Of a stretch of 64,000 bases of DNA, positions 4,944 through 43,324 are shown piece by piece; the first letter of the stretch is position 1, and each line of letters begins with the position of its first letter. The position numbers and the translations under genes are program-made. Origin of the DNA: Torpedo marmorata (lineage: Eukaryota). The stretch is taken from positions 77,562,001 to 77,626,000 of the forward strand of contig OZ360232.1 in NCBI GenBank assembly GCA_977017645.1, in the 5' to 3' direction. The notes under the pieces were generated by a model. The model saw only the letters and a program-made list of their open reading frames with translations. It had not been told where the DNA came from and searched no databases.

Positions 4944-5796
4944 CTACAATGAAACATGGAAAGGAATATTTTAACACAAACAGTATTTAAAATTTGGCAT
5001 GGTAAATATCTATTTACAGAACTTGTAAATAATAGAATGCAAGCAATATAATCACAGTATCTTAATTTTTTTTTCAATCAAAATATCGCATGATTTTGTT
5101 TGCTATGTTATCTTTTAATAATTTGATTTGCATTGTTTCAACAATATTTTGGGTTTCAATGTATACTCTTGCCAAAGATTTGTTTCGAACCTTTACTACA
5201 AACTACATGGATGATATACATCTGACTTTTAACATACTCTGGAAATAACCTTATAGTCTTCTCACTTTAATTTCAATAGTGAGTTTGAGGAAACTCATGC
5301 ATTATCTTAAAATGAACGAGTTGAAATATCAATGGAATATGAGTCATTTAAATATAGTAATTGGAAACTCAATTTTCCAGAAGAAGAGGCCAAACACAAG
5401 TAGTAAGATAACCCCAAGTTAAACTAAGAAGTTGGTGTGTTACAACCAGCTTCTGAAATTGCTGGCATATTCACTAAATTTCATAACATAACAAACAACT
5501 TGTACTTCAATACTGAAGTATGCCCCATTGGTTGCATGTCATTTACTGAAAGTTCATGCATAGAAAGAAAAGGTAAATCTTTATGACTATGTCCTTATGG
5601 TTCCTATTATGCACATTTTGGAACAAAAAAGTTAATTTTCCACCCCATGTTGGGGATGAGCAAGAATTAAACAAGTTCAGTTCCATTGTTATCATAATTA
5701 TATTCTAACAGTCTTGATTCATTGCAGTTAAAAGCTGTTTTAACAAAGTGCCACTATACTGTTATCAAAGTTTGTTTTATCAGATTTTAAAGGCAG

Positions 5797-6419
5797 TATA
5801 AGTAACGGTGACTTCGCTCCACCAATAGTCACCTGGAGGCTAAGTGTGGTCCTTGCTTTTGACGCGTTTTATTTTATTTACTGACAAAGTCCAATATGTT
5901 CAGAGATTTTTATTTTCACACATGACTTGCAGTAATCTTCAATGACTTTAATATAAACAGTTCTTGTAAACGATGTATGATAAGTTCCTTTAAATTATTC
6001 TTTAAACAATTCCAAAACGATATGAAAACACTGTAGATGATGTTAAAGTTATAAAAACATTATAACTCGATATAAAACGGTCAATAAAGATGTGGAGACC
6101 AGACTCACCCTCCATACATCTTTTCCTTTCCTGTTCTCTCTCTCTTTAATGGCTCTGCGCATCCTACCCCGCGCATACTACAACTCCCAGCCTCCCACGC
6201 GCACAATGACGTCGCTCCATACTGCGCATGCGCCCGTCGGCACTCCCGCGCATGCGCATATCAAAGAACGGGCTGATAGCGGCCCGCAGACAACGCGAGC
6301 GCTCCGAACGGGCCGAGGACGGCCCAGCAACATCCACAACAATTACGCGGCGCTCCAAGGCCCGACAAGACATCGGAGCGCCGCAACAACGGTAAGTAAA
6401 CGAGCCTACGGCTCTTACA
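5797..6419 (-). repeat. 3' LTR of the BEL/Pao element
   Basis: Direct repeat of 11157-11779; element-sense ends TGTAAG...CTTATA; AATAAA near the U5 end. Confidence 0.95.
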
Positions 6420-6432
6420 CCGGCCCCTAATT
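6420..6432 (-). other. Polypurine tract of the BEL element (AATTAGGGGCCGG)
   Basis: Abuts the TG of the 3' LTR; resembles vertebrate BEL PPTs. Confidence 0.75.
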
Positions 6433-6623
6433 ATTATAATTAGACGTAATGTCTTGAATAATAATTACACTATAAATTATAAATAACAATAACCATAATA
6501 TTCAAAACAATACAAATCTTCTTTCTTCCTTCTTCATAAATCTAGAGTTTACCATAACTCTGATTAAACAAAAGTCTGTAACCTGTGAAATGTACAACAA
6601 CAAATAAAGTCAGTTCACATTTA

Positions 6624-6807
6624 TCAAAGTTCCTCTGTCTCCAACAAAAGGCAGACCTTATTAATAGGTCTGTTTAGAAAAAACCAGTCTTAGGTTTAAT
6701 TCACATTTGACGCACAAGTCCTCTTTGTCTTGAAAAGTCTCAATAATCTTTTCCAAGTAACCAGGAATTTCTTGAAGTTGAACCATCCATAACAATCACA
6801 ATGTCTC
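6624..6807 (-). pseudogene. Frameshifted remnant of the BEL integrase C-terminus (DUF5641-like)
   Basis: Manual translation across frameshifts: DIVIVMDGSTSRNSWLLGK / IIETFQDK / GLVRQ / RPINKVCLLLETEEL*. Confidence 0.8.
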
Positions 6808-6844
6808 TTTAAAGTTCTTTTATCTTCAAATCTGAGTTAAAATG

Positions 6845-9800
6845 TCAATCAGTAAACCTCAAATCTTCTTCAGACAAAATAGATACAGTTTTTCTTTTGA
6901 ATTTAACACAAGGCACTTCTTCAGCACGTCGTTTCACTTTATTCCTTTCTTCAGTGTTCCACTTCTCATGTGAAGAATTTAAACTCTTAGAATTAGAATT
7001 TGAATATTTATCTGATTCTTTCGATTTTAAACAGGTCTGTTTAACCACTCTGGTTTCTATGGCTCTTTCCTGCAATTCTAAATCCAATTTCGCAACTTTC
7101 AATTCAGTCTCAGCTCCTTCCGAGAAATTAATAATTTGATCTGAAGTCAAAATATCATGCGATACATTGATAGTTCCATTGTCAATCCTGTTGCGGCATA
7201 CTTGAAATTTTTTAATTTCTTCGTCTTGCTTGATACATTTCTGCAATGCAATTTCACATTCTTTCTGCATTGTTAATTGTTGAACATTCAATTTACATTC
7301 TTGATTGGTTTTAAAAGTTAACTGTTTTGTGTTATTAACCAATAACTTGATCTCTTTCAAAACATTAATCTCTTCTTCCAACCTTTTACATTTTGATAAT
7401 GCTGAATCTCTTTCCTCAATAACTGTATTCATTTCTTCAACAGTTATTCTTTTCTTCCGCTTTCTGACTTTGCGAGTTTTACTTACAATTAAATCTTTCT
7501 GTTTACTGTTTTCTTGCTTATTTAATATTTCCAATTCTCCTTTCAACATTTTGTTCTCTGAATCATTATTCTTTATTCCATCAGCACAATTTTCTGTGTT
7601 TTCCAGTTTTACATCACATTGTAATATTTCTTCATTAGCTTTGTCAATTGTAATCTCTGAACTACAAAATCTACATTCAGATTTGTTTTCAGTCACTTGT
7701 TTTATTCCTGTATCTGATTCAATTACACATGAATGATCAATAGTATTATTTGCAACATCTTCTAATACTTCACTTTCATTCATTTTTGACGAAATTAATT
7801 TCTTCAATGTTGTTTTAAATACCACTGATTTATTTTCACATTGATCTGTTTTCTTTTCTTCAAAAGTGATTTTCTTATTCACGGTTTTTTGCTCTTCGCT
7901 TAACTCTTCAACTTTCTCAACCGAAATTTTATTAATATTTATCGCTACCTGTTCCTGAGCAATATCATTATTTCTTTCCATTGGTCCATTGATTGCCCAA
8001 CCAAGTATGGTTCTAATAGCGTAAGGTCCATTCCTTTTACTTTCTATTACTTCTTTTGGTACCAAAACCTTTGGCACATCTGAACCAATCAGCATTTCTA
8101 TTTCAGAATTAATTTCAGGTAAATAAACCTTCCACAGATAAGCTAAATGATGGATATCACTTTGATGAGGAATATTTCCTTCGTTCACAGGCATAGTCTT
8201 CTGAGTATATACACTTGGAAGATCACAAAACCTTTTGTCATCTAATCCAGCAACCTCTAAGCCTGAAACAATGTTAGTTTCAACAACCTTTTCTTGTCCC
8301 ATGGTTTTTAACATAATTCTTGATTTTCTTCCTTGAATATTAAGTTTATTCATTAGTCCTTCCGTGCAAAAAGATGCAGTGCTGCCTGGGTCTAGAAATG
8401 CATATGTTTTTACTATTGCATCCCCTTTCTTGGCTTTGACTTGTACAGGCACTATTGAAAGTTTGCAGTTATCCACACCGGCCCCAGTAAGACCACTTGT
8501 CTGAACCGAGGTTATAACATTATTTTCTGTTGTTTCCTTTGTTTCTGTTTGCTCCTTTTCCAATTCCTTGTTTCTGTTATGGATATGCAAAATTCTAGGA
8601 TGTTTCAAATTGCATATGTTACAATTAATTCGCTTCTCGCAGTTTTTACTGATGTGCCCTTTACACAAACAGCTAAAACATATCCCATTTTCCTTTAAGA
8701 AAGCGATCTTTTCCTTATGTTCCTTCTTTTCCAATCGTAAACACATTTCTAAAGTATGTCCACCTTTACAGAACAAACAACTCTTTTTATCAGAACTTTC
8801 CTTTTCCTTATTTATAACTGACACATTAGTAGCAAACGTACTCCTTTTCATTTTCGGGCTATACTGTGTATTAGACTTCCTTACATCTTTGCCCATTGAA
8901 TTATCTCTGGTTTTTCCATATAGTGGATCTGTTTCAACGTACACCCGTCGTTCAAGAAAATTTACTAAATCCTTTAAGGTAGTTTTTCGACCGTAATCTA
9001 CTTGTAAATCACAAGCCAAATCTCTCCATCTATCCCATAACTTGTAAGGTAATTTTTCTAAGATGATTCTCATATTACTATGCACTTCAAGTTCACGAAT
9101 ATTATCAATTTTTTCCATAGCATTACAACATCCTCTTAAAAACAAAGTATATTCTTGCAAAGCCTTTACATCATTTTGTTTTATTGATGTCCATTTAAGA
9201 GCTTTATCCATATAAGCTAAAGCAATTCGATGTTTGTTGCCAAAATATTGTTCCAATAAAGCCTTAGCTTTGTCTAATCCTCTTCCTGAAGACATTTGGT
9301 TACAACTTTTTACCAGTTCTTTTGGATGTCCCTTTGTGAACATTTCCAAATAATAAAGACATTCATCACGATCTTGGCATTTATCTTCAATATTGCGTTT
9401 GAAAGATCTCATAAATGATTGATATTGAAGTGGATCACCATCAAAAGTTTGTATCTCTTTCTTGGGTAAAGAAGAGAGAGACTGTAACTGAAACAATGAT
9501 GCAGCAATTTCATTTTGTCTTTCCTTGGATTTCAATACATTACTCTGTTCACTGTCTCGTGTTGTATGCAATGTATCTGGAAACCTTACTGGTGTAGTTT
9601 CTTCCATATTTCTGATGCTTGGCTCATATAACAAAGAATTTACTTCGTTCGACCGGACCCAAGCCGCAGCTTTGCTTTCAGATGTTACTAATGGTACATG
9701 TGACTCGATACCAATATGCTCGTGAAAGGTTTGTCCTTGTATATGTAAGTTTTGTATCCTTGGTTCTAAAATATCTATCCTTTTGGTTGATTTCTTTTCC

Positions 9801-10711
9801 TGTGACTCCTTTTTTAAATATGACCTTTTATTATTAGACAATTTAGATGATTTACTGCTAGCACCAGATACCATTGAGCCTTCTATTGCTTTCTTTTCTG
9901 CCTTGGCAATAGCAATGTTTGCTTCCAGTTCCTGCTGTTCTTTTCTCTGCTTTAGCTGCTCCTTCTCTTGTCTTAGCTGCTCCTTTAGCTGCTTCTCATT
10001 TTGTCTTAGCTGCTCCTTTAGCTGCTCCTCATTTTGTCTTAGCTGCTCCTCCTCTTGTCTTAGCTGCTCCTTTAGCTGCTCCTTTAGCTGCTCCTCCTTT
10101 CGTCTTAGCTGCTCCTCCTTTTGTCTTAGCTGCTCCTTTAGCTGCTTCTCATTTTGTCTTAGCTGCTCCTTTAGCTGCTCCTCATTTTGTCTTAGCTGCT
10201 CCTCCTCTTGTTCTAATATAAATTTATCCTTAAGCGTTTTTTGTTGTGCAAGAAGAGCGGCCAATTTAACATCAACCTTTGTACGTGACGATGCAGAACT
10301 TGAAGTACGAGAAACTCTGGAGCTTGAACCAGAACTTTTTTTGCTTCTCCTGCTTTCAGCATTTGAGACACTGTCACTTGCTTGTATTTCGTCCTGCAGT
10401 TCACATGTTGTCTTCATACTTACCTCTTTATCCAATTCAAATTGTTCATCATTTGTTGACACAATTTCAGCCATTTCCAAGTTATCTTCTTGTTCAACTA
10501 ATGAAGCTGCTTCTTCTTCCTTTGCCTGCTTCAATCTTTCAATAAGAACCTTTTTATTTCCACTTATGTCCTTATTCAGTCGCTTCAATTCTTCTTTAAT
10601 ATCCGCAACCTTCATGTCTTCAATACGTTGGTCCTCAACAGCAACATCAGCGGTTGCTGCGTCAGCTGCTGATAAATCAGTAGCTGCTGTATCAGTGGCT
10701 GCTGCGGCCAT
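6845..10711 (-). CDS. Chimeric polyprotein: SAP domain - repeat coiled coil - BEL Gag (DUF1759-like, three Zn knuckles) - aspartic protease - MIPOL1-like coiled coil; no RT/RH/IN core
   Basis: Uninterrupted 1309-codon ORF; likely start aaaATGG at 10711 (1288 aa); FDGDPLQYQSF; CLFCKGGHTLEMC, CFSCLCKGHISKNC, CNICNLKHPRILH; AFLDPGSTASF..LIGSD..LGWAINGP; no YxDD motif. Confidence 0.9.
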   Translation of the reverse strand: MAAAATDTAATDLSAADAATADVAVEDQRIEDMKVADIKEELKRLNKDISGNKKVLIERLKQAKEEEAASLVEQEDNLEMAEIVSTNDEQFELDKEVSMKTTCELQDEIQASDSVSNAESRRSKKSSGSSSRVSRTSSSASSRTKVDVKLAALLAQQKTLKDKFILEQEEEQLRQNEEQLKEQLRQNEKQLKEQLRQKEEQLRRKEEQLKEQLKEQLRQEEEQLRQNEEQLKEQLRQNEKQLKEQLRQEKEQLKQRKEQQELEANIAIAKAEKKAIEGSMVSGASSKSSKLSNNKRSYLKKESQEKKSTKRIDILEPRIQNLHIQGQTFHEHIGIESHVPLVTSESKAAAWVRSNEVNSLLYEPSIRNMEETTPVRFPDTLHTTRDSEQSNVLKSKERQNEIAASLFQLQSLSSLPKKEIQTFDGDPLQYQSFMRSFKRNIEDKCQDRDECLYYLEMFTKGHPKELVKSCNQMSSGRGLDKAKALLEQYFGNKHRIALAYMDKALKWTSIKQNDVKALQEYTLFLRGCCNAMEKIDNIRELEVHSNMRIILEKLPYKLWDRWRDLACDLQVDYGRKTTLKDLVNFLERRVYVETDPLYGKTRDNSMGKDVRKSNTQYSPKMKRSTFATNVSVINKEKESSDKKSCLFCKGGHTLEMCLRLEKKEHKEKIAFLKENGICFSCLCKGHISKNCEKRINCNICNLKHPRILHIHNRNKELEKEQTETKETTENNVITSVQTSGLTGAGVDNCKLSIVPVQVKAKKGDAIVKTYAFLDPGSTASFCTEGLMNKLNIQGRKSRIMLKTMGQEKVVETNIVSGLEVAGLDDKRFCDLPSVYTQKTMPVNEGNIPHQSDIHHLAYLWKVYLPEINSEIEMLIGSDVPKVLVPKEVIESKRNGPYAIRTILGWAINGPMERNNDIAQEQVAININKISVEKVEELSEEQKTVNKKITFEEKKTDQCENKSVVFKTTLKKLISSKMNESEVLEDVANNTIDHSCVIESDTGIKQVTENKSECRFCSSEITIDKANEEILQCDVKLENTENCADGIKNNDSENKMLKGELEILNKQENSKQKDLIVSKTRKVRKRKKRITVEEMNTVIEERDSALSKCKRLEEEINVLKEIKLLVNNTKQLTFKTNQECKLNVQQLTMQKECEIALQKCIKQDEEIKKFQVCRNRIDNGTINVSHDILTSDQIINFSEGAETELKVAKLDLELQERAIETRVVKQTCLKSKESDKYSNSNSKSLNSSHEKWNTEERNKVKRRAEEVPCVKFKRKTVSILSEEDLRFTD
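9950..10210 (-). repeat. Coding minisatellite of 12/21-bp units (EQLK / EQLRQxE)
   Basis: Repeated ttagctgctcc units; frame preserved throughout. Confidence 0.9.
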
Positions 10712-11156
10712 TTTACTCGTCTTGTTCCTCTTTCCTTCAAGCATACACAACACTAGCCAAACAACAGTCCCCAATGGACCAGCGGCAGCAATTCCAATCT
10801 GTGTTCTTACTTGTTAAAGATACACAGAAGGAGTCCACAGACTTATGCCTACCACTTCAAATGACTGTAATGTGCTGCAATCCACAAACGAGTTTCAACC
10901 ACAACATCCGTCACTAATATCACTGATTTTCCAAAAAATAGTTTTTCCAACGTATTTATAGGACACTTTACTATAAGATTTGAAGCTTTAAATCCCTCTC
11001 TGGCTGTTATTCATGGCAGATGGAAGTGGATTACAAACTGCCCCCAACTCGAGGCATCTCCAAAATGGCCACCAATTTATATCAGTCCAAAGCACAGAGA
11101 GTTTTCTATCTTCTTTCCTTCAAACTTCTGTTCCAAACAGCCAGCCCTTTATTGAC

Positions 11157-11779
11157 TATAAGTAACGGTGACTTCGCTCCACCAATAGTCACCTGGAGGC
11201 TAAGTGTGGTCCTTGCTTTTGACGCGTTTTATTTTATTTACTGACAAAGTCCAATATGTTCAGAGATTTTTATTTTCACACATGACTTGCAGTAATCTTC
11301 AATGACTTTAATATAAACAGTTCTTGTAAACGATGTATGATAAGTTCCTTTAAATTATTCTTTAAACAATTCCAAAACGATATGAAAACACTGTAGATGA
11401 TGTTAAAGTTATAAAAACATTATAACTCGATATAAAACGGTCAATAAAGATGTGGAGACCAGACTCACCCTCCATACATCTTTTCCTTTCCTGTTCTCTC
11501 TCTCTTTAATGGCTCTGCGCATCCTACCCCGCGCATACTACAACTCCCAGCCTCCCACGCGCACAATGACGTCGCTCCATACTGCGCATGCGCCCGTCGG
11601 CACTCCCGCGCATGCGCATATCAAAGAACGGGCTGATAGCGGCCCGCAGACAACGCGAGCGCTCCGAACGGGCCGAGGACGGCCCAGCAACATCCACAAC
11701 AATTACGCGGCGCTCCAAGGCCCGACAAGACATCGGAGCGCCGCAACAACGGTAAGTAAACGAGCCTACGGCTCTTACA
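11157..11779 (-). repeat. 5' LTR of the BEL/Pao element
   Basis: Direct repeat of 5797-6419; CpG-rich U3. Confidence 0.95.
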
Positions 11780-12178
11780 GGCAGTTAAAGTGATTCTTCA
11801 CTGTTCAAAAAAATTAATTGTGAAAGAACAATGCAATTTCTAATCATATCCAGATATTCAGCATATTTTTCAGTTGTCTTTAAATTCATCTGAAAAAAGT
11901 GAGGTGTTAAGGAATCACTGTGGTGTAATCACAACAGCATTTGAAGGGTGAATTCATAGAGGTCACTTTAATGAACTGGAGTTGAGCAAAGTTAAGCAAC
12001 TTCAACAAAGAACAAAGAACAAAATACTCAAAGGATGGGCAAGTATATCAATGCCACCTTGATAATCAAGTTCAAGTTCAAATTAATTGTCAGAGTACAT
12101 ACATAACATCACATAGAACCTTGAGGTTCTTTTTCCTGCAGGCAGGTGGAGAATTATCAGCTATGCAAATGATGTCAA

Positions 12179-15677: not shown

Positions 15678-15976
15678 TAATAATGTTGTTAAAAAAACAC
15701 TCCCACCAAAGTTAGGTTAGTGAATATCACAAAAAAAGTTAGGTCCGGAGGTGGAAAGTGTTAAATGTTGGCAGAGCCGATGACTAACACGGCTTAATCC
15801 ATGTAGTCACCCAACTAATGGTTTAAAAACTTGGCCATAACCAATAAGAAACCCAATGAAAGCTCATCCTAGAGTACCCAAACTTCAGGAGCTTTATCCT
15901 ATACAGAAATAAAAACTACTATGGCAATATACAAGGTACTATTGTTGCAGGAATATATATCAAGGTAACAATACTA

Positions 15977-16847
15977 CCGTATTTGACGGCATATAGGACC
16001 CCCCCCCCCCCATTTATAGCGTGAGATTTCAGGAAAAATTTGTTTTAGTGTATTTACCTTCACAGCAGCAACACGTCCTCCTGCCCGCCACACGCCGAGG
16101 CTCAGGCTGCTTCCCCCCCCACCGTCCAAACGCTAATTGATTGACAGGTGTGCCGGGACCTGCAGGCGCGCGAGGGTGGGAGGGAGAGAATCCAAGACAA
16201 CGGGCAGGGCCCAGGCCCACCGTCGCAGGGAGCAGACGATCGATCGCTTTCTTCGAGGGGAGCGCTGGGCCTCAGTGATCAGGCTCCACGCTGAGTCTTT
16301 GTTCGATGCGCACGGCTCCCCGAACAGATTGAATGAGGCTCGGGGGCGGGTGGCAGTGAGCGAGTGGCCTGTTGAGCTGAGCTTGACAGGCCACTCGCTC
16401 ACTGCCACCCCCCCCCCCCCCCCGGCGCCTCATTCAATTTGCTCAGGGTCCGTGCTCGTCGAACAAAGGCTGATCATCAAGGCCCAGCGCTCCCCTCAAA
16501 GCACTGTTGGTGAGAGCGAGCGGGAGGGGGAGCGAGCGGGCGGTGAGAGAGCGGGCAAGGGCAAGCGAGCAGGCGGGGAGAGTGAACGGGAGGGAGAGAG
16601 CGGGCGAGTGAGCGGGAAGGAGGGAGAGAGTGAGCCTTCTTACCGGGGGAAGTGAGCGGCGGCGACTCCGGAAAGCACGGGTCCCCCAAGGGAAGGTGGT
16701 CTGCGAAGCTGCGGGCCCGCTTCCTGGACTCCACTCAGTTCCCAAAATGGTGGCACCAAAATGTCACCTTCGCATATAAGACCCGGGGTGGTTTTTGAGG
16801 TGATTTTTTAGGGAAAAAAGGAGGGTCTTATATGCCATCAAATACGG
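15977..16847. mobile_element. Tc1/pogo-superfamily MITE with GC-rich palindromic interior
   Basis: TIRs ccgtatttgacggcatataggaccc / gggtcttatatgccatcaaatacgg, TA TSD on both sides. Confidence 0.85.
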
Positions 16848-17428
16848 TAATTGGATAATCACTAAATTTTAGAAACAGAATACAATAAGCATAAAGCGTA
16901 TTTAGTGTCTGACAGAAGACTAATTTCTACCCCTTAACATAACCCCATCTGTCACTTTGTATTACAGTATACATTACTGTGAACATTCATTGGAGTTCTA
17001 GAAATATAGGCAGAATGCGATTCAATTTTGTTGCAGAATGTGATCTCTTCAACAAGTACTGTAAATGGAGTGGATGGCAGCTATTTATGAAGGAAAGCTA
17101 GCATGCAAAATGTCCAGAAGCATACTATGAATTTCAACTGCTACATAAATCATGGAGTCGACCTTAACCAATCTCAGCAGTTGAGCACAATATGGATTTA
17201 TGTTCTACCCAATTTTACTCTGTTAAAACTAATGAAGTATTATATTGGGACCATTCTAAAACTAATTATCCATTTGAACTGTAGGTTAACCACCCAGAAA
17301 GTTAGGTTAAAGATAACCCCCATGATTCTAAGGTTATAACAATATAAATAACCACGTTATTCCTCCCTCAAAAATTAGTTACCCGATATCTACAAAAGCA
17401 CCGTGTGCCAAAATAAGTTGATACAGAC

Positions 17429-19238: not shown

Positions 19239-19339
19239 TTTAGGTAAGGTTGATCTTCACTATAAAATAGTGCTCAACACGTAATGTGGAGCTAAATAAA
19301 TAAGTAAACAGAAAAGCACACTACTCACATGTGCCCGAC

Positions 19340-19650
19340 NNNNNNNNNNNNNNNNNNNNNNNNNNNNNNNNNNNNNNNNNNNNNNNNNNNNNNNNNNNNN
19401 NNNNNNNNNNNNNNNNNNNNNNNNNNNNNNNNNNNNNNNNNNNNNNNNNNNNNNNNNNNNNNNNNNNNNNNNNNNNNNNNNNNNNNNNNNNNNNNNNNNN
19501 NNNNNNNNNNNNNNNNNNNNNNNNNNNNNNNNNNNNNNNNNNNNNNNNNNNNNNNNNNNNNNNNNNNNNNNNNNNNNNNNNNNNNNNNNNNNNNNNNNNN
19601 NNNNNNNNNNNNNNNNNNNNNNNNNNNNNNNNNNNNNNNNNNNNNNNNNN
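19340..19650. other. Assembly gap (N run)
   Basis: 311 N. Confidence 1.
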
Positions 19651-20668
19651 CATCTGTGCCACCATCTGCAACTGGATCCTTGACTTTCTCACCGGAAGAC
19701 CACAGTCAGTACGAATTGGAAACAATGTCTCCTCCTCACTGATTATCAACTCGGGCGCACCCCAAGGATGCGTGCTTAGTCCACTGCTCTACTCGTTATA
19801 CACCCATGACTGTGTGGCCAGGAACAATTCCAATGCCATCTACAAGTTTGCCGATGACACCACAGTTGTCGGCAGAATCACAAACGGCAATGAGGAAGCG
19901 TACAGGAGGGAGATAGATCAGCTCGTTGAATGGTGTAACGACAACAACCTTGCGCTCAACGTCAGCAAAACCAAGGAGATGATTGTGGACTTCAGGAGGA
20001 AGTCAGGGGAACACGACCCAGTTCTCATCGAGGGCTCAGTAGTGGAGAGGGTCAAGAACTTCAAATTCCTGGGTGTCAACATATCCGAGGATCTGTCCTG
20101 GAGCCTCCACGTTGATGCAATCACAAAGAAGGCTCGCCAGCGGCTATACTTTGTGAGGTGTCTGAGGAGATTCGGTATGTCACCGAAGACTCTCGTAAAC
20201 CTCTACAGGTGTACCGTGGAGAGCATTCTAGCTGGTTGCATCACTGCCTGGTATGGAGGCACCAACTCTCAGGACAAGAATAAACTCCAGAGGGTTGTTA
20301 ACTCGGCCTGTGACATCACAGGCACCAGACTTCACTACATCGAGGACATCTACATGAGGCGGTGTCTTAAAAAAGCAGTCTCTATCCTCAAAGACCCCCA
20401 CCACCCAGGCCATGCCCTCTTCACTCTGCTACCATCGGCAAAAAGGTACAGGAGCCAAAAGACAAGCACTCAACGGCACAAGGACAGCTTCTACCCCGCT
20501 GCCATTAGATTCCTAAATAATCAATGAACCAAAAACACTGCCTTACTTTTCGTGCACTATTATTTATATATTTTTATAGTAATTTCGTAAGATGGTTATA
20601 ATATGAATGTTTGCACTATGATGCTGCCGCAAAACACCGAATTTCATGACTTGTTCATGACAATAAAT

Positions 20669-20722: not shown

Positions 20723-23700
20723 TGTGAGCTACACAGAATTCTGAAGAACAACACACAGTCGGTGGGTTGCAAGCAAGACTGTTTAATCGGGTCTCGCAAC
20801 CCTGGCTTTTAAGCAGGGCTGCGAGCTTAATTGCTGTCGTTTACATGACCATTGCCGCTTAATCGCTGTCGTCTACATGACAATGGGAGCTGTACATTAC
20901 AATGGGAACTTTCCCGGGTCTCCTGTCCTTCTTCTCCTGGTTGAAGTAGTTGGGGGGGGGGGGGTTGGTGCCATCTTTGCGCCGGCCCCTGCTGTTGCCA
21001 GGTGTACTTGCGCGACCTTTATAGTGGTGCCCTGTGTGGTCCCCTTCTGACGAACACATACTCACAGCTCCGCAGGTTGTTGGGGATGCGCGCGGGCCGC
21101 TGTCCGTGTTGCGACGTGGGGATCGGTGCTGGGTTGCCGAGTTGCTCGCGGAGTCTGTTGAGCACCTCTGCTGTGCTGGCATCTTGCCTCCTTGGGGTTG
21201 GTAGGAATTCCCCTGGTACCACCAGGGGGGTTCCGTAGACCAATTCTGCCGACGAGGTATTGAGGTCTTCTTTAGGCGCTGTGCGGATCCCCAGGAGGAC
21301 CCACGGCAACTCGTCCACCCAATTCGGACCGTCTAGGCGGGCCATTAGAGCGGCTTTTAGGTGGCGGTGGAAGCGTTCCACTAAACCATTGGATTGTGGA
21401 TGGTAAGCCGTCGTTTTGTGGAGCTGTGTGCCCAGCAAGTTGGCCATGGCTGTCCACAGGGCTAATGTAAATTGGGCCCCCCTGTCCGAGGTAATGTGGG
21501 CTGGCACCCCAAAGCGTGCGACCCACGTGGTGATAAGGGCTCTTGCACAGGCTTCGGTGGTGATGTTCGCGAGAGGGACTGCCTCGGGCCAGCGAGTGAA
21601 ACGGTCCACCATGGTGAGGAGACGGGTAGGGGGCCTACCAGGTCTACGTGCATGTGGTCAAATCGCCTGGTCGTTGGCTCAAATTTTGTGGCTGGGTCTT
21701 TGTGTGGTTTTGGACTTTTGAGGTCTGGCACTGCACGCAGTTCTTGGCCCATTCGGTGACTTTCTTGCGGAGACCGTGCCAGACGAATTTACTTGAAATC
21801 AGCTTAGCGGTAGTTCTGATGAACGGGTGGGATAAGCCGTGAATGGAATCGAAAACCTGCCTCTGCCACGCCGTTGGGACAATGGGTCGGGGTGGCCTGT
21901 GGAGACGTCACATAGGAGAGTTTGCTCACCTGTCCCGATGGCGATGTCCTGGTTCTGAAACATTGCATCTCTTCATCAGCCTGCTGCGCCTCTGCCAGGG
22001 CGGTGTAGTCGATCCCTTGGGCTAAGGCTTGGATAGTTGGCCGGGATAGTGCGTCAGCTACAGCGTTGTCCTTTCCTGAGACATGCTGAATCTGTGTCGT
22101 GAACTCAGATATGTAGGACAAGTGGCGCTGTTAGCGGGCCGACCAGGGGTCGGAGACTTTCGAAAACGCGAAAGTGAGCGGCTTGTGGTCAGTGAAGGCG
22201 GTGAATGTTCTACCTTCCAGAAAGTATCGAAAGTGCCGTATGGCCAGGTACAGTGCTAGTAGCTCCCGGTCGAAGGTGCTGTATTTAAGTTCGGGTGGCT
22301 GTGAATGTCTACTGAAAAAGGCCAAGGGTTTCCAGCTGCCTTCACTAAACTGCTCCAGTACCCCGCCGACTGCCGTGTTTGAAGCGTCCACCGTGAGGGA
22401 GGTTGGCACGTCGGTTCTGGGGTGAACCAGCATCAGCCAGGGCCTCTTTGTTAAAAGCCGCAGTGGATTCCGCATCCCAAACCAGCGCTTTGGCTTTGCG
22501 GGTGAAAAGCGGACGCATGATGCGGGCTGCTGCTGGCAGGAATCTGTGATAAAAATTGACCATCCCCACAAACTCCTGGAGGCCCTTGACGGTGGATGCC
22601 CGGGGGAATTTGGAGAACTGCGTCCACTTTGTCGGGTAGGGAAGTTGCGCCATGGCGTGTGATCATATGGCCCAGGAAGTCAATTGTGGAGAGACCGAAC
22701 TGGCATTTGGCCAGGTTGACTGTAAGGCCAAATTGGTTTAGGCGGTTGAACAGCTGGCGGAGGTGTGCTATGTGCTCCTGGCGGGTTTTACTGGCGATAA
22801 GTATATCATCCAAGTAAATGAAAAGGAAGTCCAAATCCCGCCCTACCGCATCCATTAAGCGTTGGAAGGTTTGGGCCGCGTTCTTTAGCCCGAATAGCAT
22901 GCAGAGGAATTCAAACAGGCCAAAAGGGGTTATGATGGCTGTTTTGGGCACATCCTCTGGTAGCACGGGGATTTGGTGATAACCTCGGATGCGGTCGACC
23001 TTTGAGAATATAGTCGCCCTGTGCAGGTTGGCGGCGAAGTCCTGAATGTGGGGAACAGGGTAGCGGTCGGGAGTGGTGGCTTCATTAAGCCTGCGGTAGT
23101 CACCGCATGGCCTCCACCTACCGGATGCTTTGGGCACCACGTGCAGTGGGCTTGCCCAGGGACTATCGGAGCGTCTGATTATCCCTAAGGTCTCCATCCT
23201 GCTAAACTCCTCTTTGGCTAGTCGGAGTTTATCCGGGGGCAAGCGGCGTGCGCGGGCGTGGAGCGGTGGGCCCTGGGTGGTGATGTGGTGCCTGACACCG
23301 TGCTTGGGCATCTCTGCCGTGAACTTGGGGTCGGAAATTGACGGGAAATCAGCGAGCAAGTGGGTGAAATCGTCCTCTGGCTGCGCTACGGAGCTCAGCT
23401 GGGTGGAGTGGTGATTGGATTTTTGCAGGGCAAAGGATTGGAAGGTCCGTGCATGGACCAGCCGGTTACCCTGCAGGTCTGCCAGTAAGCTGTGTGCCCT
23501 GAGGAAGTCGGCCTAGGATGGGCATCCAGACGCTTGCGAGCGTGAACTCCCACGAGAAATGGCTGTCGCCGAACCGGAGGTATGCCGTCCTTGGGCCGAA
23601 CGTTGGAATGGTGCTGCCGTTGGCGGCCCGCAGCGCGTGTCCCTGTGACCGGGTCCTGGTTTTGTACGGTGTCGGGGGAATAATGCTGATTTTGGCTCCT

Positions 23701-25204: not shown

Positions 25205-25464
25205 TGAACTCATTTGACTCGGGACTCATTTCTACCCAGTTATATTACACAATATGTCACTTTAACTTTTGAACATTGTGTTCCAAATTAACATTAAGTT
25301 ATCTTTGCAATTACTCATCATTCACAATCCATATTCCTCAGATTTAAAAATACTCAAAAACTGTATTTCCACTATCCTGAGGAAGACAGTTCCATGGTTC
25401 ACGGCTCTGAGAAAACAAAATGTGCCTCATCGCAATCATAAATAGACAATCGATTATTGTAGAA

Positions 25465-26550
25465 CATCATCCGCCGCATCTGTTCCCAAGATGAGGTGTT
25501 CCACTCCAGATCTTCTGAAATGTCTGCCTTTTTCCACAAACGTGGCTTCCCCTCCACCACCATCAACTCAGCCCTCACTCGCATCTCCTCCATTTCCCGC
25601 TCATCTGCCCTGGCCCCCTCTGCCCCCAGACGCAACAAACATAGAGTACCCCTCATCCTCACCTACCACCCCACCAGCCTCCGCGTCCAACACATTATCC
25701 GCCGGAATTTCCAGCACTTGCTGCAGGATCCCACCACCAGACACATTTTTCCTTCTCCTCCCCTCTCGGCCTTCCGTAGGGACCGCTCCCTCCGCGATTC
25801 ATTCGTGCACTCGTCCCTCCCCACCCATCCTACCCCCGGAACCTTCCCCTGTGCCCGCAGGAGGTGCAACACCTGCGCCCACACCTCCCCCCTCACCACG
25901 GTCCAGGGCCCCAAACAGGCCTTCCAAGTGAAACTACACTTCACTTGTATATCCAAAGGACTTATCTACTGCATCCGGTGCTCCCTTTGTGGCTTTCTAT
26001 ACATTGGAGAGACCGGTCGTAGATTGGGAGACCGCTTTGCTGAGCACCTCCTCTCCGTCCGCAACAACAGCGACCTCCCAGTAGCCAACCATTTCAATTC
26101 TGGGTCACACTCCCACGCTCACATGTCTGTCCATGGCCTCATGTACTATCCCACCCAGACTACCCGCAAATTGGAGGAACAACATCTCATATTCCGTCTC
26201 GGCACTCTCCAGCCAGATGGCATTAACATTGACTTTTCTGCTTTCCACTAAACCTGTTTGTTGTTCCCTTCCCCTCCCCCCTCACCTGTCCTTCCTGTTT
26301 TTTTTCCACCCACCCAGCCATCCCTCCTCCCCCTCTTTGCTGCTGTCCCCTCCCTCCTTTCTCCACCTATCATCTCCTGCCTTTGCCACCCACCTTCCCC
26401 CCTCACTCCTTTGTTCGGACGCCTGCCGGCATTTTCTCATACTTTGATGAAGGGCTCAAGCCCGAAACGTCGGTTATGTATTTCTACCTTTGCTACATAA
26501 AAGACACTGTTTGACCTGCTGAGTTCTCCAGCTTTTGTGTTTTTTACTAT
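25465..26550 (+). mobile_element. Penelope-like element 3' part with GIY-YIG endonuclease
   Basis: ORF 25496-26251: VPLILTYHP..AFRRDRSLRD..CNTC..GLIYCIRCSLCGFLYIGETGRRLGDRFAEH..GTLQPDGIN; pyrimidine tract; tgatgaagggctcaagcccgaaac tail. Confidence 0.92.
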
Positions 26551-30605: not shown

Positions 30606-32075
30606 AGAATCAGAATCAGAATTTATTGTCATGAACAAGTCATGAAATTCGGTGTTTTGCGGCAGCATCATAGTGCAATTAACATTCATATTAACCATCT
30701 TACGACATTACTATAAAAAATTATAAACAATAGTGCACGAAAAGTAAGGCAGTGTCTTTGGTTCATTGATTATTCAGGAATCTGATGGCAGCAGGGAAGA
30801 AGCTGTCCTTGTGCCGTTGAGTGCTCGTCTTTAGGCTCCTGAACCTTTTTCCCGATGGAAGCAGAGTGAAGAGGGCATGGCCTGGGTGGTGGGGGTCTTT
30901 GAGGATAGAGGCTGCTTTTTTAAGACACCGCCTCATGTAGATGTCCTCGATAGAGTGAAGTTTGGTGCCTGTGATGTCACAGGCTGAGTTAACAACCCTC
31001 TGGAGTTTACTCTTGTCCTGGGAGTTGGCGCCGCCATACCAGGCAGTGATGCAACCAGCCAGAATGCTCTCCACGGTACACCTGTAGAAGTTTACGAGAG
31101 TCTTTGGTGACATACCAAATCTCCGCAGACACCTCACGAAGTATAGCCGCTGACGAGCCTTCTTTGTGATTGCATCAACGTGGATGCTCCAGGACAGATC
31201 CTCGGAGATGTTGACACCCAGGAATTTGAAATTCTTGACCCTCTCCACTACTGAGCCCTCGATGAGGACTGGGTCGTGTTCCCCTGACTTCCTCCTGAAG
31301 TCCACAATCATCTCCTTGGTTTTGCTGACGTTGAGCTCAAGGTTGTTGCCATTACACCATTCAACGACCTGATCTATCTCCCTCCTGTACGCTTCCTCAT
31401 TGCCGTTTGTGATTCTGCCGACAACTGTGGTGTCATCGGCAAACTTGTAGATGGCATTGGAATTGTGCCTGGCCACACAGTCATGGGTGTATAACGAGTA
31501 GAGCAGTGGACTAAGCATGCATCCTTGGGGCGCGCCTGTGTTGATAATCAGTGAGGAGGAGACGTTGATTCTGATTCGTAGTGACTGTGGTCTTCCGATG
31601 AGAAAGTCAAGGATCCAGTTGCAGAGGGGGGTACAGAGGCCTAGAGTTTGTAGCTTCTTGACCAGCACTGAGGGAATAATGGTATTGAAGGCCGAGCTGT
31701 AGTCGATGAAGAGCAGCCGTATGTATGAATTGTTGTTTTCGAGGTGATCCAGAGCTGAGTGGAGAGCCAGCGATATTGCATCTGCTGTGGAGCGATTGTG
31801 ACGATAGGTGAATTGCAGTGGGTCCAGATCTTTGCTTAGGTATGTGTTAATTCTGGCCATGACCAGCCTCTCAAAGCATTTCATCACAGTAGAAGTTAGT
31901 GCTACTGGGCGGTAGTCGTTGAGGCAGCCCACACTACTCTACTTGGGTACCGGGATGATTGATGCCCTTTTGAAGCAGGTGGGAACCTCTGACTGCCGCA
32001 ATGAGAGGTTGAAAATGTCCGTGAACACTCCGGCTAGTTGGTTGGCGCAGATTTTCAGTACCCTACCAGGTACGC
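30606..32075 (-). mobile_element. Rex1/Babar LINE, 5'-truncated, RT ORF open (30763-31932)
   Basis: [35 protein letters not shown]; (ATTCTG)n tail. Confidence 0.95.
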
Positions 32076-33908: not shown

Positions 33909-36900
33909 TGTGGTGGAACGCGGTACTGAGGGTATGTCCGGGCATGTCCAGACATGTCCTCACTGGCTCACCGGGCTAACATGTAGCCCCTCCCCATTAC
34001 ATCCCCTAATAACGGCTGAGAGCACTTGTCTCCTCCCCTATACCTGCCTTGGAAGTGAGCCAGCAGCATGTAGAGGCATGCTCGAACTTTCTGATCAATA
34101 AAGCCTTTGATCACTTTCTTCGTGACTGTGAGTGGTCATTGATCGCGCTACAATTTATTAATCAGAATTTTAAATGCCATGGAGAAGGCAATTAGACTGG
34201 AGAAGCTGGACACAGACCCCAAGGAACCAGAGGCTTCCGTAAAGTTCGATATGTGGCTACACTGCTTGAACGCCTATCTGAGGCGCCACAATATCACAAC
34301 CAACCCGGATAAGTACGATATGCTCTTCGCAGCGGTGGGTCACAGAGCGTACCAAATTATCCGAGACTGCACCGAATATGAAGAGGCAATGGCTCTACTT
34401 TGACAACAATACGGAGACCCAGCGATCGCCATGTATACACGCTTCCAGCTGGGCTCCCGACGCCAGGGTCCTGGTGAGTCAGTAGACGAGTTCGTGAGGG
34501 CTATGCGGGAGCTGGGACAAGCCTGCAGGTGCCGGGACGTGAGCGCGGCGCTCTACCAAGAGGAGCTCATCCGCGATGGGCTCGTCGCGAGCTTCCGCTC
34601 CCAACACATAAGGGAGCGACTCTTGGAGGAAGGAGATCAGTCCCTCCAAGTAGTGGTGCAGATGGCCCGAGCGATGGAGACGGCCCAAAAGAACGCGGAG
34701 GCCTACTCAGCGGGCCACGCGGCCACCAGGTGGGGAGAACGGGCGGCGCCATCTTGGGCTTGGGGCCCCTGACTGCAGCGACCACCGCCGACCACGCGAG
34801 GTGCAACTACTGCGGCCAAAGTAGACACCCACGGAAGTACTGTCCGGCCCGTAGCGCAACCTGCTCAAACTGCCAGAGGAAGGGACATTATGCCAGGGTT
34901 TGTCGCTCCAAGCCCCACTCCAGCAGTGCAGCGTGCGGACCGCGACTCTCCTCGCCATCTTGGACCCACCCACTACCGCCGTCATTTCCGGCTGCCGAAA
35001 ACCGAGCTTCTGGAACAGGGGCGCAACAAAGAGGACTGACGTCACTTCCTGCTTCTTCTCCAGATTCGGCCGCGTGTGATCCATGGGGGCGGCCATCTTC
35101 ACTACCCCCTGGGCGGCCATCTTGGCGGCAGCCACCCCGAAACAGCAGCAGCGACTCGGACAGTGAGCTGACGCTGGCGTCCATTGTGCTGGACCAAGGG
35201 AGACCACACCAGCTGGGGCGATCGATGATGGACGTTGAGGTAAACGGTCACTCCACTGGCTGCCTGTTCGACACAGGAAGCACTGAGAGCTTCATACACC
35301 CGGGCACTGCCGAGCGTTATTCCTTGACCATGTCCCCAGCCAAGGGAAAGGTAGCACTAGCCTCCAAATCCCTTACCACGGAAATCCGCGGAAGCTGCAC
35401 CGTGACCCTAACTGTGGGGGGCACCAATTATAAGAATTTTAAACTGCTGGTAATGCCCCACCTCTGCGCACCCGTCATATTGGGGCTAGATTTCCAGTGC
35501 CAGTTCAAAGAGGTGCTGATGCAGTTTGACGGGCCCCACCCCCCGTCACTAATAACCAGTACCGGGAGGCCCCGCCCATTCCCCAGAGGAGGCCCAATCA
35601 CACGATTGAAAGCCGGGCTGGGTACCCGACCTGCGGACTAACCACCCTCCGGGTCCCTCCGCCCCCGCTGTTCCAAAACCTCACCCCGGACTGTAAACCC
35701 ATTGCAGGCGAAACAGCCCCGTGGACAGAAAATTCATTGAAACGGAAGTGGAGTGGCTGCGGGAGGAGGGCATTATAGAGTGGGGAGAGACATCGGATGG
35801 TAATTGACTACAGTCAGACCATCAACCGGTTCACCTTACTGGACGCCTACCCTTTGCCCCGCATATCGGAGATGGTAAATGAGATCGCCAAGTACAGGGT
35901 CTTTTCGACCATAGACCTAAAAGCGGCGTACCACCAGATCCCGATTCGCCCAAAAGACTGGTTGTACACAGCATTTGAGGCCAACGGCCGACTCTACCAT
36001 TTCCTGCGGGTCCCATTTGGTCTCACGAATGGGGTGTCAGTGTTCCAAAGGGAAATGGACCACATGGTGGATGACAATAAGCTGAAGGCTTCGTTTCCAT
36101 ACTTGGACAATGTCACCATCTGCGGCCATGACCAAAAGGAGCACGACGAGAACCTGCAGAGGTTCCTGGCCACCGCAAAGACACTCAACCTCACGTATAA
36201 TGAGAAAAAGTGTGTCTTTAGCACCAAAAGGCTGGCAATCCTGGGGTACGTGGTGGAGCATGGGGCTATCGCCCCTGACCCCGAGCGTATGCGCCCCCTA
36301 CTGGAATTACCTTTACCACAGAACCCCAAGGCTTTAAAAAGGTGCCTGGGGCTCTTCTCCTATTATGCCCAGTGGATCCCTAACTATGCGGACAAGGCCC
36401 AACCTCTAGTGAGAACCACGACTTTTCCCCCGTGGGCGGAGGCCCGTAAGGTTTTCGAGGGCATCAGAGGCGAGATTGCCAAGGCGGGAATGCACGCCAT
36501 TGATGAATCTGTCTCTTTCCAAGTGGAAAGTGATGCCTTTGACTTCGCCCTGGCCGCCACGCTGAACCAAGCGGGCAGGCCAGTCGGATTTTTTTCCCGT
36601 ACCCTCCAAGGCCCCGAACGCAGGCACTCCACCATCGAGAAGGAGGCACAGGCTATAGTGGAGGCAGTGCGTCACTGGAGGCACTACTTGGCCGGCAGAC
36701 CATTCACCCTGCTGACGGACCAGAGAGCCGTCGCTTTCACGCTTTCATAAACAGCGGGGTAAGATCAAAAATGACAAAATCATGAGGTGGGGAATTGAGC
36801 TGTCCACTTACAATTATGAAATATGGTACTGGCCAGGTAAGCTCAATGAGCCACCCGATGCCCTGTCCAGGGGAACCTGCACCAGGGTGCAAGTTGATCG

Positions 36901-38416
36901 CCTCCAGGCCCTCCACGATAGGCTCTACCATTTTGTGAGATCCCGGAACCTTCCCTACTCAGAATCAGAATCAGAATCAGAATCAGAATCAGAATCAGAA
37001 TTTATTGTCATGAACAAGTCATGAAATTCAGTGGAGGAAGTAAGGGAGCTGACTCGCAATTGCCAGGTCTGTGCCGAATGCAAGCCTCAATTTTATAGAC
37101 CGGATAGAGCCCAACTGATCAAAGCCACTCGCCCTTTTTAACGTCTCAGCATTGACTTCAAGGGGCCCCTCCCGTCCACGAATCAGAACTCCTACTTCCT
37201 GAACATCGTGGACAAGTACTCACGTTTCCCATTCGCCATCCCCTGCCTGGATATGACCACATCCACGGTCATTAAAGCACTCCGCTCAGTATTCACTCTG
37301 TTCGGATACCCTAGTTATGTTCATAGTGACCGGGGATCTGCTTTCATGAGTGAGGAGTTGCGGCAATACTTCCTTTCAAGGGGCATAGCTACGAGCAGAA
37401 CCACCAGCTACAACCCCCGCAGGAACGGGCAGGTGGAAAGGGAGAATAGTACGATCTGGAGGGCAGTCCTTTTGGCCCTCAAGTCGAAAGGGATGCCCGT
37501 ATCCCAGTGGCAAGAGGTCCTCCCAGATGCGCTGCATGCTACCAGATCCCTACTCTGCACGACCACCAATGCTACACCCCACGAAAAATTGTTCTCCTTC
37601 CCTAGGAGATTGGCGTCGGGAACCACGCTGCCAGTCTGGCTGACGACCCCAGGGCCGGTGCTTCTTCAGAAGCACGTTAGGACTCATAAGGCGGACCCAC
37701 TGGTCGAGCAAGTGCATCTCCTGCATGCCAACCCCCAGTATGCGCTGGTAAGGTACCCGGACGGACGGGACGATAGTGTCCATCCGGGATCTGGCGCGAG
37801 TGGGGGCCCCGGCACGGGAGGTGCACCCGATATCCCCAGTCAGCGACCAGTCGGCCCCAGGGATCACCCTGACAAATGAAATGGGGATCCCACCCCCAAG
37901 ACGGCCCCCCGATTGTTCCCCTTCACTTGTGTGTCCCCCCCCCCACTCTTACCAATAAATTCACCACCCCCTTCGGACTCGGGACACAGAAATAGTTCAG
38001 CCATCTGACAGCCAGCAGGTCGAACACGACACCGCTCAGCTTGAGCCGAAGATACAGCCAGTACTTCGGAGATCTCAGCGCGAAAGAAAACCACCGGAGC
38101 GGCTGAACCTATGAGACTATAAACTGTATGGACATTGCCCCGTGTCACCCTGCCGGACTTTATTAAAAAAAGGAGGGGTGAATGTGGTGGAACGCGGTAC
38201 TGCGGGTATGTCCGGGCATGTCCTCACTGGCTCACCAGGCTAACCTGTAGCCCCTCCCCATTATATTCCCTAATAAAGGCTGAGAGCCATAGTCTCCTCC
38301 CCTTTACCTGCCTTGGAAGTGAGCCAGCAGCATGTAGAGGCATGCTCGAACTTTCTGATCAATAAAGCCTTTGGTCACTTTCTTCATGACTGTGAGTGGT
38401 CATTGATCGCGCTACA
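33909..38416 (+). mobile_element. Full-length but decayed Gypsy LTR retrotransposon (Mag-like)
   Basis: LTRs 33909-34152 and 38183-38416 (TG..CA, several differences), TSD GTGAC, PPT aaaaggaggggtgaa; twin CCHC, LFDTGS, YLDN, SDRGSAF; stops and frameshifts. Confidence 0.95.
36959..37029 (-). mobile_element. ~70-bp Rex1 3'-end insertion inside the Gypsy integrase
   Basis: (TCAGAA)7 + tttattgtcatgaacaagtcatgaaattc matches the 3' end at 30606-30650; interrupts LPYS|VEEVR. Confidence 0.9.
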
Positions 38417-39327: not shown

Positions 39328-42300
39328 TTTTTTTTTTTTTTAAATATTTTATTTAAATTTTAAATCACACATTACATAAAATAACTTGCATATAATTCTT
39401 AAAAAATACATGTGATTACATTTTCTCCCCCCCTCATCCCACCCTCCCCTCCCTAGCCCCTATACCCCCCTAATCTAATTTTAAAAAAAAATATATATAA
39501 AATAATAATAGTAAAGATAAAAGAAAAAGTAGAGATATAAAGATAGAACGAGGAGTCAATAAGCTTAAAAAAAAAAAAAAAACACTAATATATCTTAGAG
39601 GTTGTTTCGCCGGTAGGTCTAATATCCAGAGAATTCACAATGTTAAACCCATAATCCTCGTATATGGGCCCCAAATTTTTAAAAAAGAATGATATTTATT
39701 TCGTAAATTATAGGTAATTTTTTCCAATGGTATACATGACCGTAACTCTGCATGCCATCGTTCTAAATTTAAATCAACATCCGATTTCCAAGTAATAGCT
39801 ATACATTTTTTTGAAATTGCTAATATTATACGTAAAAATTCTACTTGATACATATTCAATTTATGTCTAATACTAAATTTTTTAATGTCTCCAAATAAAA
39901 ATAACATAGGATCCATTGCAATTTTAACATTAAAAACTCTTTCTAAAAAATTCTTAACTTTCAACCAAAATTCTTGAATCTTTGAACATGACCATGTACA
40001 ATGTACAAAAGATCCTATTTCAGTTTTACATCTGAAACACGTATCTGATAACGCTGGGTTAAATTTCTTCAATTTTCTAGGTGTCAAATACAATTGATGA
40101 AAAAAATTATATTGTACTAATCTATATCTCACATTAATAACTTTTGTCATACTTAGTTTACATAAATCTTTCCAATGTTTTTCATCTATATTAACATTCA
40201 AATCAGACTCCCATTTCAATCTAGACTTATGCTCTCCTACCTTAGACATTTTTCTTTGAAACAACTTGTACATCTGTGATATAAATTTATTAACATTAAC
40301 TTTAGTAATTAATAACTCCAATTCACTTTGTCTTAATACTGTTAATTCATTCCCTAATCTTTCAATCAAAAAAGCTCTAACTTGAAAATAAACTAACATT
40401 GTATTATCTAATATATTAAATTTTTCCTTTAACCTCTGAAAGGTAACAAATTTACCTGCTTCAAAACAATCTTTTAATGTCTTAACTCCCTTTAAAAACC
40501 ATAATTTAAGTAATTGATTATCCATAGAAAATGGTAAAAGTGGATTTTGGTATATTGGTGTATTTAAAGAAATTAATCCTTTTTGACCTATCTCCTTATC
40601 TACTTGCGACCAAATTTCCAACAAATGTTTAATAATTGGTGTTTTTTTCTTTTTAAGTAATAATAATTTAGGGTTCCATTTATAAATAATATCTTCTTTA
40701 TGTATTTCTCCCATATTATTCAATTCTATATTAATCCAAGCAGAAGTTTTATCCAAATCAAAAAATTCATTAATAAATTTTAACTGAGCTACTTTATAAT
40801 AATGTTGAAAATTAGGAAGTTGTAATCCTCCCATTTCATAATTCCATGTTAATTTATCTATACTTACTCTTGCTAACTTTCCTTTCCATAGAAATTTCCT
40901 AACAATAAATTTTAAATCTTTAAAAAATTTATTTGGAATACCATAAGGAATCGATTGAAAAAGATATTGAATTCTTGGAAAAACATTCATTTTAATACAA
41001 TTTACTCTTCCCATCAACGTTATCGGTAAGTCTTTCCAAAGCTCTAAATCTTTTTTTATTTTAGTAAATAAAGGTATATAATTTAATTTATACAAATTTT
41101 CCAAATTTGTATCTACTTTAACTCCCAAATATTTAATACTCTCTGTAGTCCACTTAAAGTCTGTAACTTCTTTACATCTAGTATAATCCCCTTGCGATAA
41201 AGCCAAAATCTCACTTTTATCTGAATTAATCTTGTATCCTGATATCTCACCATATTCTGTCAATATAATAGCCAATTGTTGAAGTGACGTAACAGATTTT
41301 GTCATATATATTAATACATCATCTGCAAACAAACTAATCTTGTGCTCTTCCCTACCCACCTTTATTCCCATTATATTTATATCTTCTCTAATCATTTCTG
41401 CTAAAGGTTCTATTACCAACACAAACAAAGCAGGAGATAAAGGACATCCCTGTCGTGTTGATCTTGATAACAAAAACTTTTGCGATATCTGTCCATTTGT
41501 AACTACTTTAGCCGTAGGTTCCTTATATATAGTTTTAATCCAATTTATAAAGTTATCTCCAAATCCAAATTTTTCCAAAACCTTAAATAAAAAATTCCAC
41601 TCTACTCTATCAAATGCCTTTTCTGCATCCAATGTTACCACCAGTGGCAGATCTTGTTTCTTCTTATATACATTAATTAAGCTTAACAATCTAGCTATAT
41701 TATCTTTCGAATATCTATTTTTAATAAATCCGGCTTGATCCGAATGTATTAAATGTGGTAGACATTTAGCTAATCTATTTGCTAAAATTTTCGCCATTAT
41801 CTTATAATCTACATTTAACAGTGAAATAGGCCTATAAGACTCTGTTTTTAATACATCTCTATCCTTCTTTGGTATAACCGTAATAATAGCATTTAAAAAT
41901 GTCTTCGGTAACAAATGAGTTTCCATAACTTGATTCAATACCTCCATATACAAAGGTATCAATAAATCTTTAAATTCTTTATAAAATTCTACTGGAAATC
42001 CATCATCACCTGGAGATTTACCACTTCTCAACGTCGATATTGCTTCAGTAACTTCTCTCATCGTAAAAGGTAAATCCAAAGAATATTTACTTTGAACAGT
42101 CAATTTAGGTAAAGTAATTTTAGATAAAAATCTATTTATCTTCGTTTCATCTTGATCTGTCTCAGATCTATATAAATTCTGATAATATTCTTTAAAAGAT
42201 TCATTTATTTCTTGTGGCTTATATGTTATTACCCCTGTATTTCTCTTCCTTATAGCATTAATTGTTTTTGAAACTTGCTCTTTTTTCAATTGCCATGATA

Positions 42301-43075: not shown

Positions 43076-43324
43076 AAGGGTAGAGTCATATCGATGGTAA
43101 AAAAAAACAGTTCTTGAACCTCGAGGTGCTGGTTTTATATTCTTAAATAGATTCTGCCTTTTCTATATTCTTTGCACGGTTTATTTTCTCCATCCTTTAA
43201 GTCACCCTTTCCTGGTTTCTAAAACATTCCCAATCTTGCCACCATATAATGACATTTTCTTTCAATGTCATGTATTTCTCAACTTTTTTTAGATAGTCAC
43301 TAATGGATCATCCTACTCACGGAC

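Follow-up and report, generated by a model that had tools for sequence, protein, structure and literature searches.

The window, meaning the whole 64,000-nt stretch of Torpedo marmorata DNA that was analyzed, contains at positions 5797-11779 on the minus strand a non-autonomous BEL/Pao LTR retrotransposon. The 5' LTR (11157-11779, minus strand; 623 bp, TG...TA) is 100% identical to the 3' LTR (5797-6419, minus strand), which is preceded by a purine-rich PPT-like tract, and the element is flanked by a 5-bp target-site duplication (5792-5796, with its partner copy at 11780-11784). A 5-bp duplication was likewise found in all 12 young copies of the family whose ends could be resolved, and their LTRs run from TG to TA, as do those of the window (5797 and 11157). 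LTR termini of BEL/Pao elements are usually TG...CA, which is not so in this family. No tRNA genes were found in the 64-kb window.

A single ORF of 1288 amino acids (6845-10711, minus strand) starts at the ATG at 10711, with a weaker in-frame ATG 11 codons upstream, and encodes a SAP domain, Gag, a protease and a host-derived tail. Downstream of the SAP domain, all on the minus strand, come an acidic linker (10394-10510), a Gln/Glu/Lys/Arg-rich Gag stretch made of 12-, 21- and 33-nt repeats and likely to form a coiled coil (9919-10244), a BEL Gag core with three Cys/His knuckles (8585-9469), an aspartic-protease-like region (7985-8458, with FLDPGS at 8381-8398) and the tail (7037-7504). We take 7985-8458 to be the protease from its position and its motif. 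Residues 380-940 match BEL/Pao Gag-protease proteins at up to 59% identity, the named matches being from teleosts, so that sequence comparison places BEL-type Gag and protease in this ORF. DUF1759 does not score in the window ORF and does so in close relatives. The window copy has no RT, RNase H or integrase core and is thus not an autonomous BEL/Pao element; a broken remnant of the integrase C-terminus lies at 6600-6800 (minus strand), out of frame with the ORF. Some 130 residues (7505-7910) separate the protease from the tail, and a short piece within them matches the start of pol of sister copies.

The window holds other mobile elements as well. A broken Gypsy-like element has its protease, RT/RNase H and integrase in different frames (34478-37879), and a 1175-aa endonuclease-RT ORF is accompanied by further AT-rich LINE RT/endonuclease pieces (39635-51275). 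RT pieces also occur with the ALKBH8_N family, alongside a GIY-YIG piece and one more RT (19304-20527, 30763-31938, 25463-26251 and 22451-23512). A MITE-like element (15975-16849) has terminal inverted repeats of 30 nt as well as nested hairpins.

An N-terminal SAP domain in Gag

The initial annotation had noted, at 10480-10711, a peptide resembling the start of SAFB/SLTM proteins. The peptide is genuine: it is encoded on the minus strand, and the start codon with which it begins (10711) reads aaaATGG with its surroundings. The SAP core (10511-10624) lies inside that interval, whereas DNLEMAEIVST (10454-10486) extends partly beyond it. In a Pfam scan of the 1288-aa ORF, SAP was the sole domain that scored: residues 30-63 gave 35.7 bits within the full ORF, against a cut-off of 23.9, and the domain alone gave 41.9 bits. 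The structural model retains the helix-loop-helix and deviates by an rmsd of 0.5-1.0 A from the SAP domains of known structure that match it best; profile and predicted fold thus agree on a SAP domain. Foldseek gave no match for this model at E 0.001, and the best match of a PDB sequence search was the MKL1 SAP. The ORF carries the SAP alone, not the SAFB-family architecture of SAP, RRM and ER-rich region.

Most of the 44 relatives whose N-termini we viewed have a conserved N-terminal domain of about 110 aa that is missing from the window element. It is predicted to form a three-helix bundle (pLDDT 91), and it has no clear family, its fold matches being generic helical bundles. The element resembles the BEL/Pao elements (Belpaoviridae) of fish in its Gag core, knuckles and protease region (at most 59% identical) and in its 5-bp target-site duplication, and its pol-bearing sister shares A17, H2C2 and DUF5641 with them. 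It differs from them in that its LTRs end in TA and pol is absent, and the SLTM SAP occupies the place of their predicted three-helix bundle.

The donor of the SAP domain

To identify relatives of the N-terminus, we used several searches. A word-indexed search with the window N-terminus gave no match at E 0.01, and a precomputed SAP family was absent from the 120 BEL relatives listed (of 312 matches). An exhaustive search gave 85 SAP proteins, and 35 of these share 60% or more identity with ray SLTM; none of the 85 aligns to BEL gag or pol, so the possibility that its closest relatives are the SAP domains of other BEL/Gypsy Gags was not borne out. A host exon encoding a SAP domain, presumably hnRNPU-like, was found elsewhere in the genome (G000:C11:31597965).

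A pattern built on the motif of the initial annotation had seven matches, six of which were older, decayed copies of the element with an SLTM-like start. Of the five best matches of an older-copy N-terminus, four are named SLTM proteins of batoids and the fifth is an unnamed, near-identical protein (84-88%). The host SLTM gene lies on G000:C68; its exons are 78-96% identical to Narcine SLTM, which suggests an electric ray or a close relative as host, and 1184 nt of intron separate exons 1 and 2. The idea that these exons are misassembled copies of the element is disfavored, since they have canonical splice sites and also match the SLTM genes of other species.

The match to host SLTM begins 38 nt upstream of the ATG in all 39 non-self DNA matches. 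All 29 older copies that we fetched are 86-90% identical to host SLTM at the nucleotide level across the exon 1/2 junction. On the spliced model the alignments extend 9-19 nt into exon 2 (exactly 16 nt in 23 of the 29), and against the unspliced gene all 29 end at the exon 1 boundary. The alignments cross the junction without the intron, and therefore a spliced mRNA was captured: the piece corresponds to 204 nt of spliced SLTM mRNA and is a retrocopy fragment by both its nucleotide match and its missing intron. In the window copy it comprises a remnant of the 5' UTR and start context (10712-10730), the Ala-rich leader (10625-10711), which is of exon 1 origin and was lengthened by internal repeats, and the SAP domain (10511-10624), which consists of exon 1 and the first 16 nt of exon 2 (all on the minus strand).

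The window stretch scored 141.8 against the captured 204 nt of SLTM, with a maximum of 62.4 among 500 codon shuffles and a score of 49.4 for the same stretch of SAFB. Its SAP core is identical to SLTM at 81 of 114 nt and to SAFB at 59 of 114, and 28 of 41 diagnostic sites are of the SLTM type versus six of the SAFB type. Identity, diagnostic sites and alignment score thus rule out SAFB, which we located separately in the host genome, as the donor. The proposal of a captured 5' end of a SAFB-family mRNA was therefore correct, with SLTM as the gene concerned.

The resemblance was also thought to reach beyond the SAP core, and this part is due to chance: exon 2 contributes only 16 nt, and ray SLTM differs at DNLEMAEIVST. 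NLEMAE belongs to the element's own linker, and a deletion moved it nearer to the SAP. A longer SLTM capture, into exons 2-4, might be suggested by a few linkers of one group of copies, clade B (L129, L130 and L134), which give collinear alignments to these exons that score higher than shuffles; so does one of 16 non-SAP controls, while near-donor copies do not, and this likeness is possibly chance.

SAP domains are also known from Zisupton and from one Penelope-like family (PMC8557442, as far as the cited part describes them), and derived copies share T-S-G-N-K with SAFB, which might suggest that the SAP came from another transposon or converged on SLTM. We give this next to no credence. None of the 85 SAP matches is a BEL Gag, and the identity of 86-90% to host SLTM includes the UTR and the splice junction; the start point within SLTM, that junction and the diagnostic sites refute both versions. 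We are nearly certain that a BEL/Pao element captured the 5' end of SLTM: the analysis shows which gene was the donor, that the junction is spliced and the breakpoints sharp, and that the ancestral N-terminal domain was lost.

Copies and history of the family

The family is young and large. At least 150 copies were scored, all 96-100% identical over the first 104 residues; this count is a lower bound, and the 37,680 first-look candidates are not copy numbers. Open frames of 1204-1352 aa occur in 114 of the 150 copies in the table, and a single copy has a frame of about 2075-2079 aa that holds SAP, RT, A17, integrase and DUF5641. A pol-bearing sister is 96% identical to the window copy over gag, and the SAP-bearing family has thus spread into pol-bearing and pol-less lineages. 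The pol-less, tail-bearing derivative is the majority of the young copies examined: all 20 that we fetched, mostly picked from long frames, carry the tail in place of pol, with LTR pairs 97.8-100% identical. Near-donor copies, where LTR pairs were found, have partial pairs about 89-96% identical. The stretch is also covered by contigs from four runs, of which one was only guessed to be RNA; these are uninformative on transcription and species range.

Several copies lie in particular arrangements. Tandem arrays with a spacing of about 5.2-5.4 kb occur at G000:C80:9658813-9669498, C11:241306691-241318605 and C22:29530073-29535612. One young copy (L150:1350-7477) is flanked by LTR sequence of its own family and is likely a nested insertion, and 11 of the 44 matches to one tail variant cluster at G000:C58:3.6-24.1 Mb.

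In a gag tree, from which 2 of 21 copies were dropped for low coverage, the 19 SAP-bearing rows fall on one side of a branch (support 67/91, not starred), the near-donor copies have short branches, and the derived groups cluster together (89/91). Seven of 12 older tail-bearing copies are intermediates, their SAP matching SLTM at 71-100 of 114 nt in steps toward the window type, and synonymous divergence is of similar order in SAP and gag. The simplest account is that SLTM was captured once and then diverged within the family. A later re-capture of SLTM is possible, given the 67/91 support for the single-origin branch and the position of SAFB between the near-donor and derived groups in a tree of the 114-nt SAP, whose root was not resolved.

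A second host-derived segment in place of pol

In the 20 older copies examined, pol is replaced by in-frame host exons of a second gene in back-spliced order. The donor is likely MIPOL1. Tail features gave a MIPOL1 family assignment of 0.82, rising to 0.96 with an older copy, a score for which only three of the ten best matches with a family had that family; we also take the tail motifs to be those of MIPOL1, and we assume a MIPOL1-FOXA1 neighborhood. One host exon was located by a pattern ending in the splice donor, and host exons A-F lie in order on the minus strand of G000:C40:64385712-64591881, with a forkhead gene tail-to-tail with them 125 kb past exon F. Older copies are mostly 88-98% identical to these exons, in the order D (part)-E-F-A-B-start of C. 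The window tail (7037-7504, minus strand; D-E-F-A-B, with the back-splice junction near 7193) is identical to the host at 95 of 156 aligned residues.

In all 20 copies, exon F ends with its last base and exon A follows from its first; past the junction 17-19 of 20 bases match exon A, compared with 6-9 matching the intron. In the host, exon A lies 206 kb upstream of exon F. A downstream donor is thus joined to an upstream acceptor, as in circRNA-derived sequences, and the junction is in frame within the element ORF. The back-spliced order points to the capture of a circular RNA, which is the likely template of the tail to judge from the junction sequence. Trans-splicing or a since-lost genomic duplication is also possible; exon F with its donor is single-copy, and no second exon A was present in the 400 kb read. 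Pseudogenes derived from circular RNAs, for instance mouse circRFWD2, likewise show a non-colinear junction, canonical splice sites and an association with LTRs, but as the cited portion of that work presents them (PMC4897178) they differ from our family, in which the junction is in frame in the main ORF and at least 191 copies keep a host motif spanning the end of exon F. Some tail-bearing copies have a gag up to 92% identical to that of a near-donor copy, so the tail was likely captured soon after SLTM. The tail has a dN/dS of 0.66 (p 0.12), and purifying selection on it did not reach significance.

Selection on the SAP and its possible function

From SLTM to the window SAP we obtained dN 0.23, dS 1.36 and dN/dS 0.17 (Fisher p 9e-5), over 38 codons only and with dS near saturation. 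Compared with near-donor copies, dN/dS was 0.35-0.42 for the Gag core and 0.16 for the zinc knuckles. The substitution pattern shows the SAP to be, on this measure, under purifying selection.

Overall we lean somewhat toward the following explanation, in which the SAP is a likely chromatin tether. A BEL/Pao element acquired the 5' end of a spliced SLTM mRNA of its host, putatively by a template switch in reverse transcription, as suggested by LTR-mediated retroposition (PMC5131818, in the part cited). Its Gag N-terminus became the SAP of SLTM, which selection has retained and which may tether Gag or the pre-integration particle to chromatin, without targeting at the sequence level. Probably soon afterwards, a derivative lost pol and gained the back-spliced exons of the second gene, and the enzymes of pol-bearing sisters likely mobilize it. 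For the tether itself we see roughly even chances, and we favor it because of the analogy with MLV: according to the passages cited, p12 anchors the capsid on chromatin and can be rescued by heterologous chromatin-binding sequences (PMC6021111). The MLV p12 and foamy virus Gag sequences resemble our case as modules borne on Gag, which serves as the working analogy; as described there, they are short nucleosome-binding peptides that have no homology to the window SAP (PMC6021111). The proposal that the SAP directs insertion to AT-rich DNA found no support: flanks of 12 young insertions (those with exact ends among 22 copies) had a GC content of 0.409, compared with 0.414 for a background of 20 arbitrary 5-kb stretches, and the target-site duplications had 0.58. 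Also against a tether, the youngest SAP carries a Lys where most other copies have Leu, at a hydrophobic position, and it has no net positive charge.

The captured SAP may instead bind RNA and help Gag to select or hold the element genome, a reading that we consider unlikely. It would suit the location of the SAP on Gag, the lack of a visible DNA-level targeting bias and the nearest structures to the model, those of 3'hExo, mostly bound to an RNA stem-loop (E 0.09). However, the SAPs of DEK-nucleosome and Tho1 structures match equally well, and Gag already has its three conserved knuckles, the region with the dN/dS of 0.16.

Slightly less probable still is that the capture spread through its strong 5' UTR and start codon, with the SAP as a mere foldable cap for the lost bundle. 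The start context is well kept while leader length varies, and the SAP of the youngest family scores 41.9 bits versus 53.7 and 57.9 for older derived copies, which were chosen as top scorers. Yet the dN/dS of the SAP is low, all 10 aligned rows share its G-x-K motif and core leucines without exception, and clade B has kept the SAP despite a changed UTR.

The initial annotation had also suggested a decoy, in which the SAP would blunt the repression of transposon RNA by SAFB/SLTM. In the parts of the study cited, L1 is bound and suppressed in human cells by SAFB1, SAFB2 and SLTM, and depleting these proteins in mouse cells raises LTR/ERV RNAs (PMC10901741); the ORF, at 40% A, is of the RNA type that SAFB-family proteins bind. 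But the RRM, shown in the cited part to be the binder of the RNA motif (PMC10901741), is absent from the captured piece, and 12 of the 38 SAP residues differ, the SLTM-specific ones having been replaced early, although a mimic would be expected to retain them. We therefore judge a decoy to be improbable. In our order of preference the tether would come first, then RNA binding, then a passenger carried along by a strong start codon, and last the decoy.

Relation to known systems and significance

Host-mRNA capture by LTR elements, circRNA-derived copies and SAP domains in other transposons are already known. LTR-mediated retrocopies are spliced host mRNA pieces within LTR elements, some with several parent genes and one in a BEL element, in the part of the survey cited (PMC5131818). 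In contrast to these, the piece in our family is fused in frame as the N-terminus of Gag, under apparent purifying selection, and the family is radiating and includes pol-bearing members. Crocodilian ERVs likewise carry captured mRNAs (KIT-ligand, nectin3) under purifying selection, but as the cited text describes them these are separate ORFs or env replacements, whereas here a 38-aa domain replaces part of Gag (PMC4299795). Zisupton and the Chlamys Penelope-like elements share an accessory SAP with our family, but they belong to different element classes, and the cited part names no host donor for them (PMC8557442). Searches of the openly accessible literature returned no paper on this element and nothing on a SAP-bearing BEL Gag or on SLTM capture, nor any capture fixed as the Gag N-terminus of a whole family that includes pol-bearing members.

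In its fullest form, the interpretation would be that the family took the chromatin-binding domain of a host repressor as a working Gag N-terminus, that this domain displaced a conserved one and is the cause of the family's expansion, and that the main non-autonomous partner encodes a selected protein tail made from a host circular RNA; we hold this only tentatively and think it on balance doubtful. The case offers a traceable gain of an accessory domain, since the donor, the splice junction, both breakpoints and the intermediates survive in one genome. The second capture would place a back-spliced RNA in a protein-coding frame and amplify it, where earlier cases are dead pseudogenes. The donor family of the first is reported to repress transposon RNA, and because the captured domain is part of Gag itself, the domain in isolation lends itself to tests of its role.
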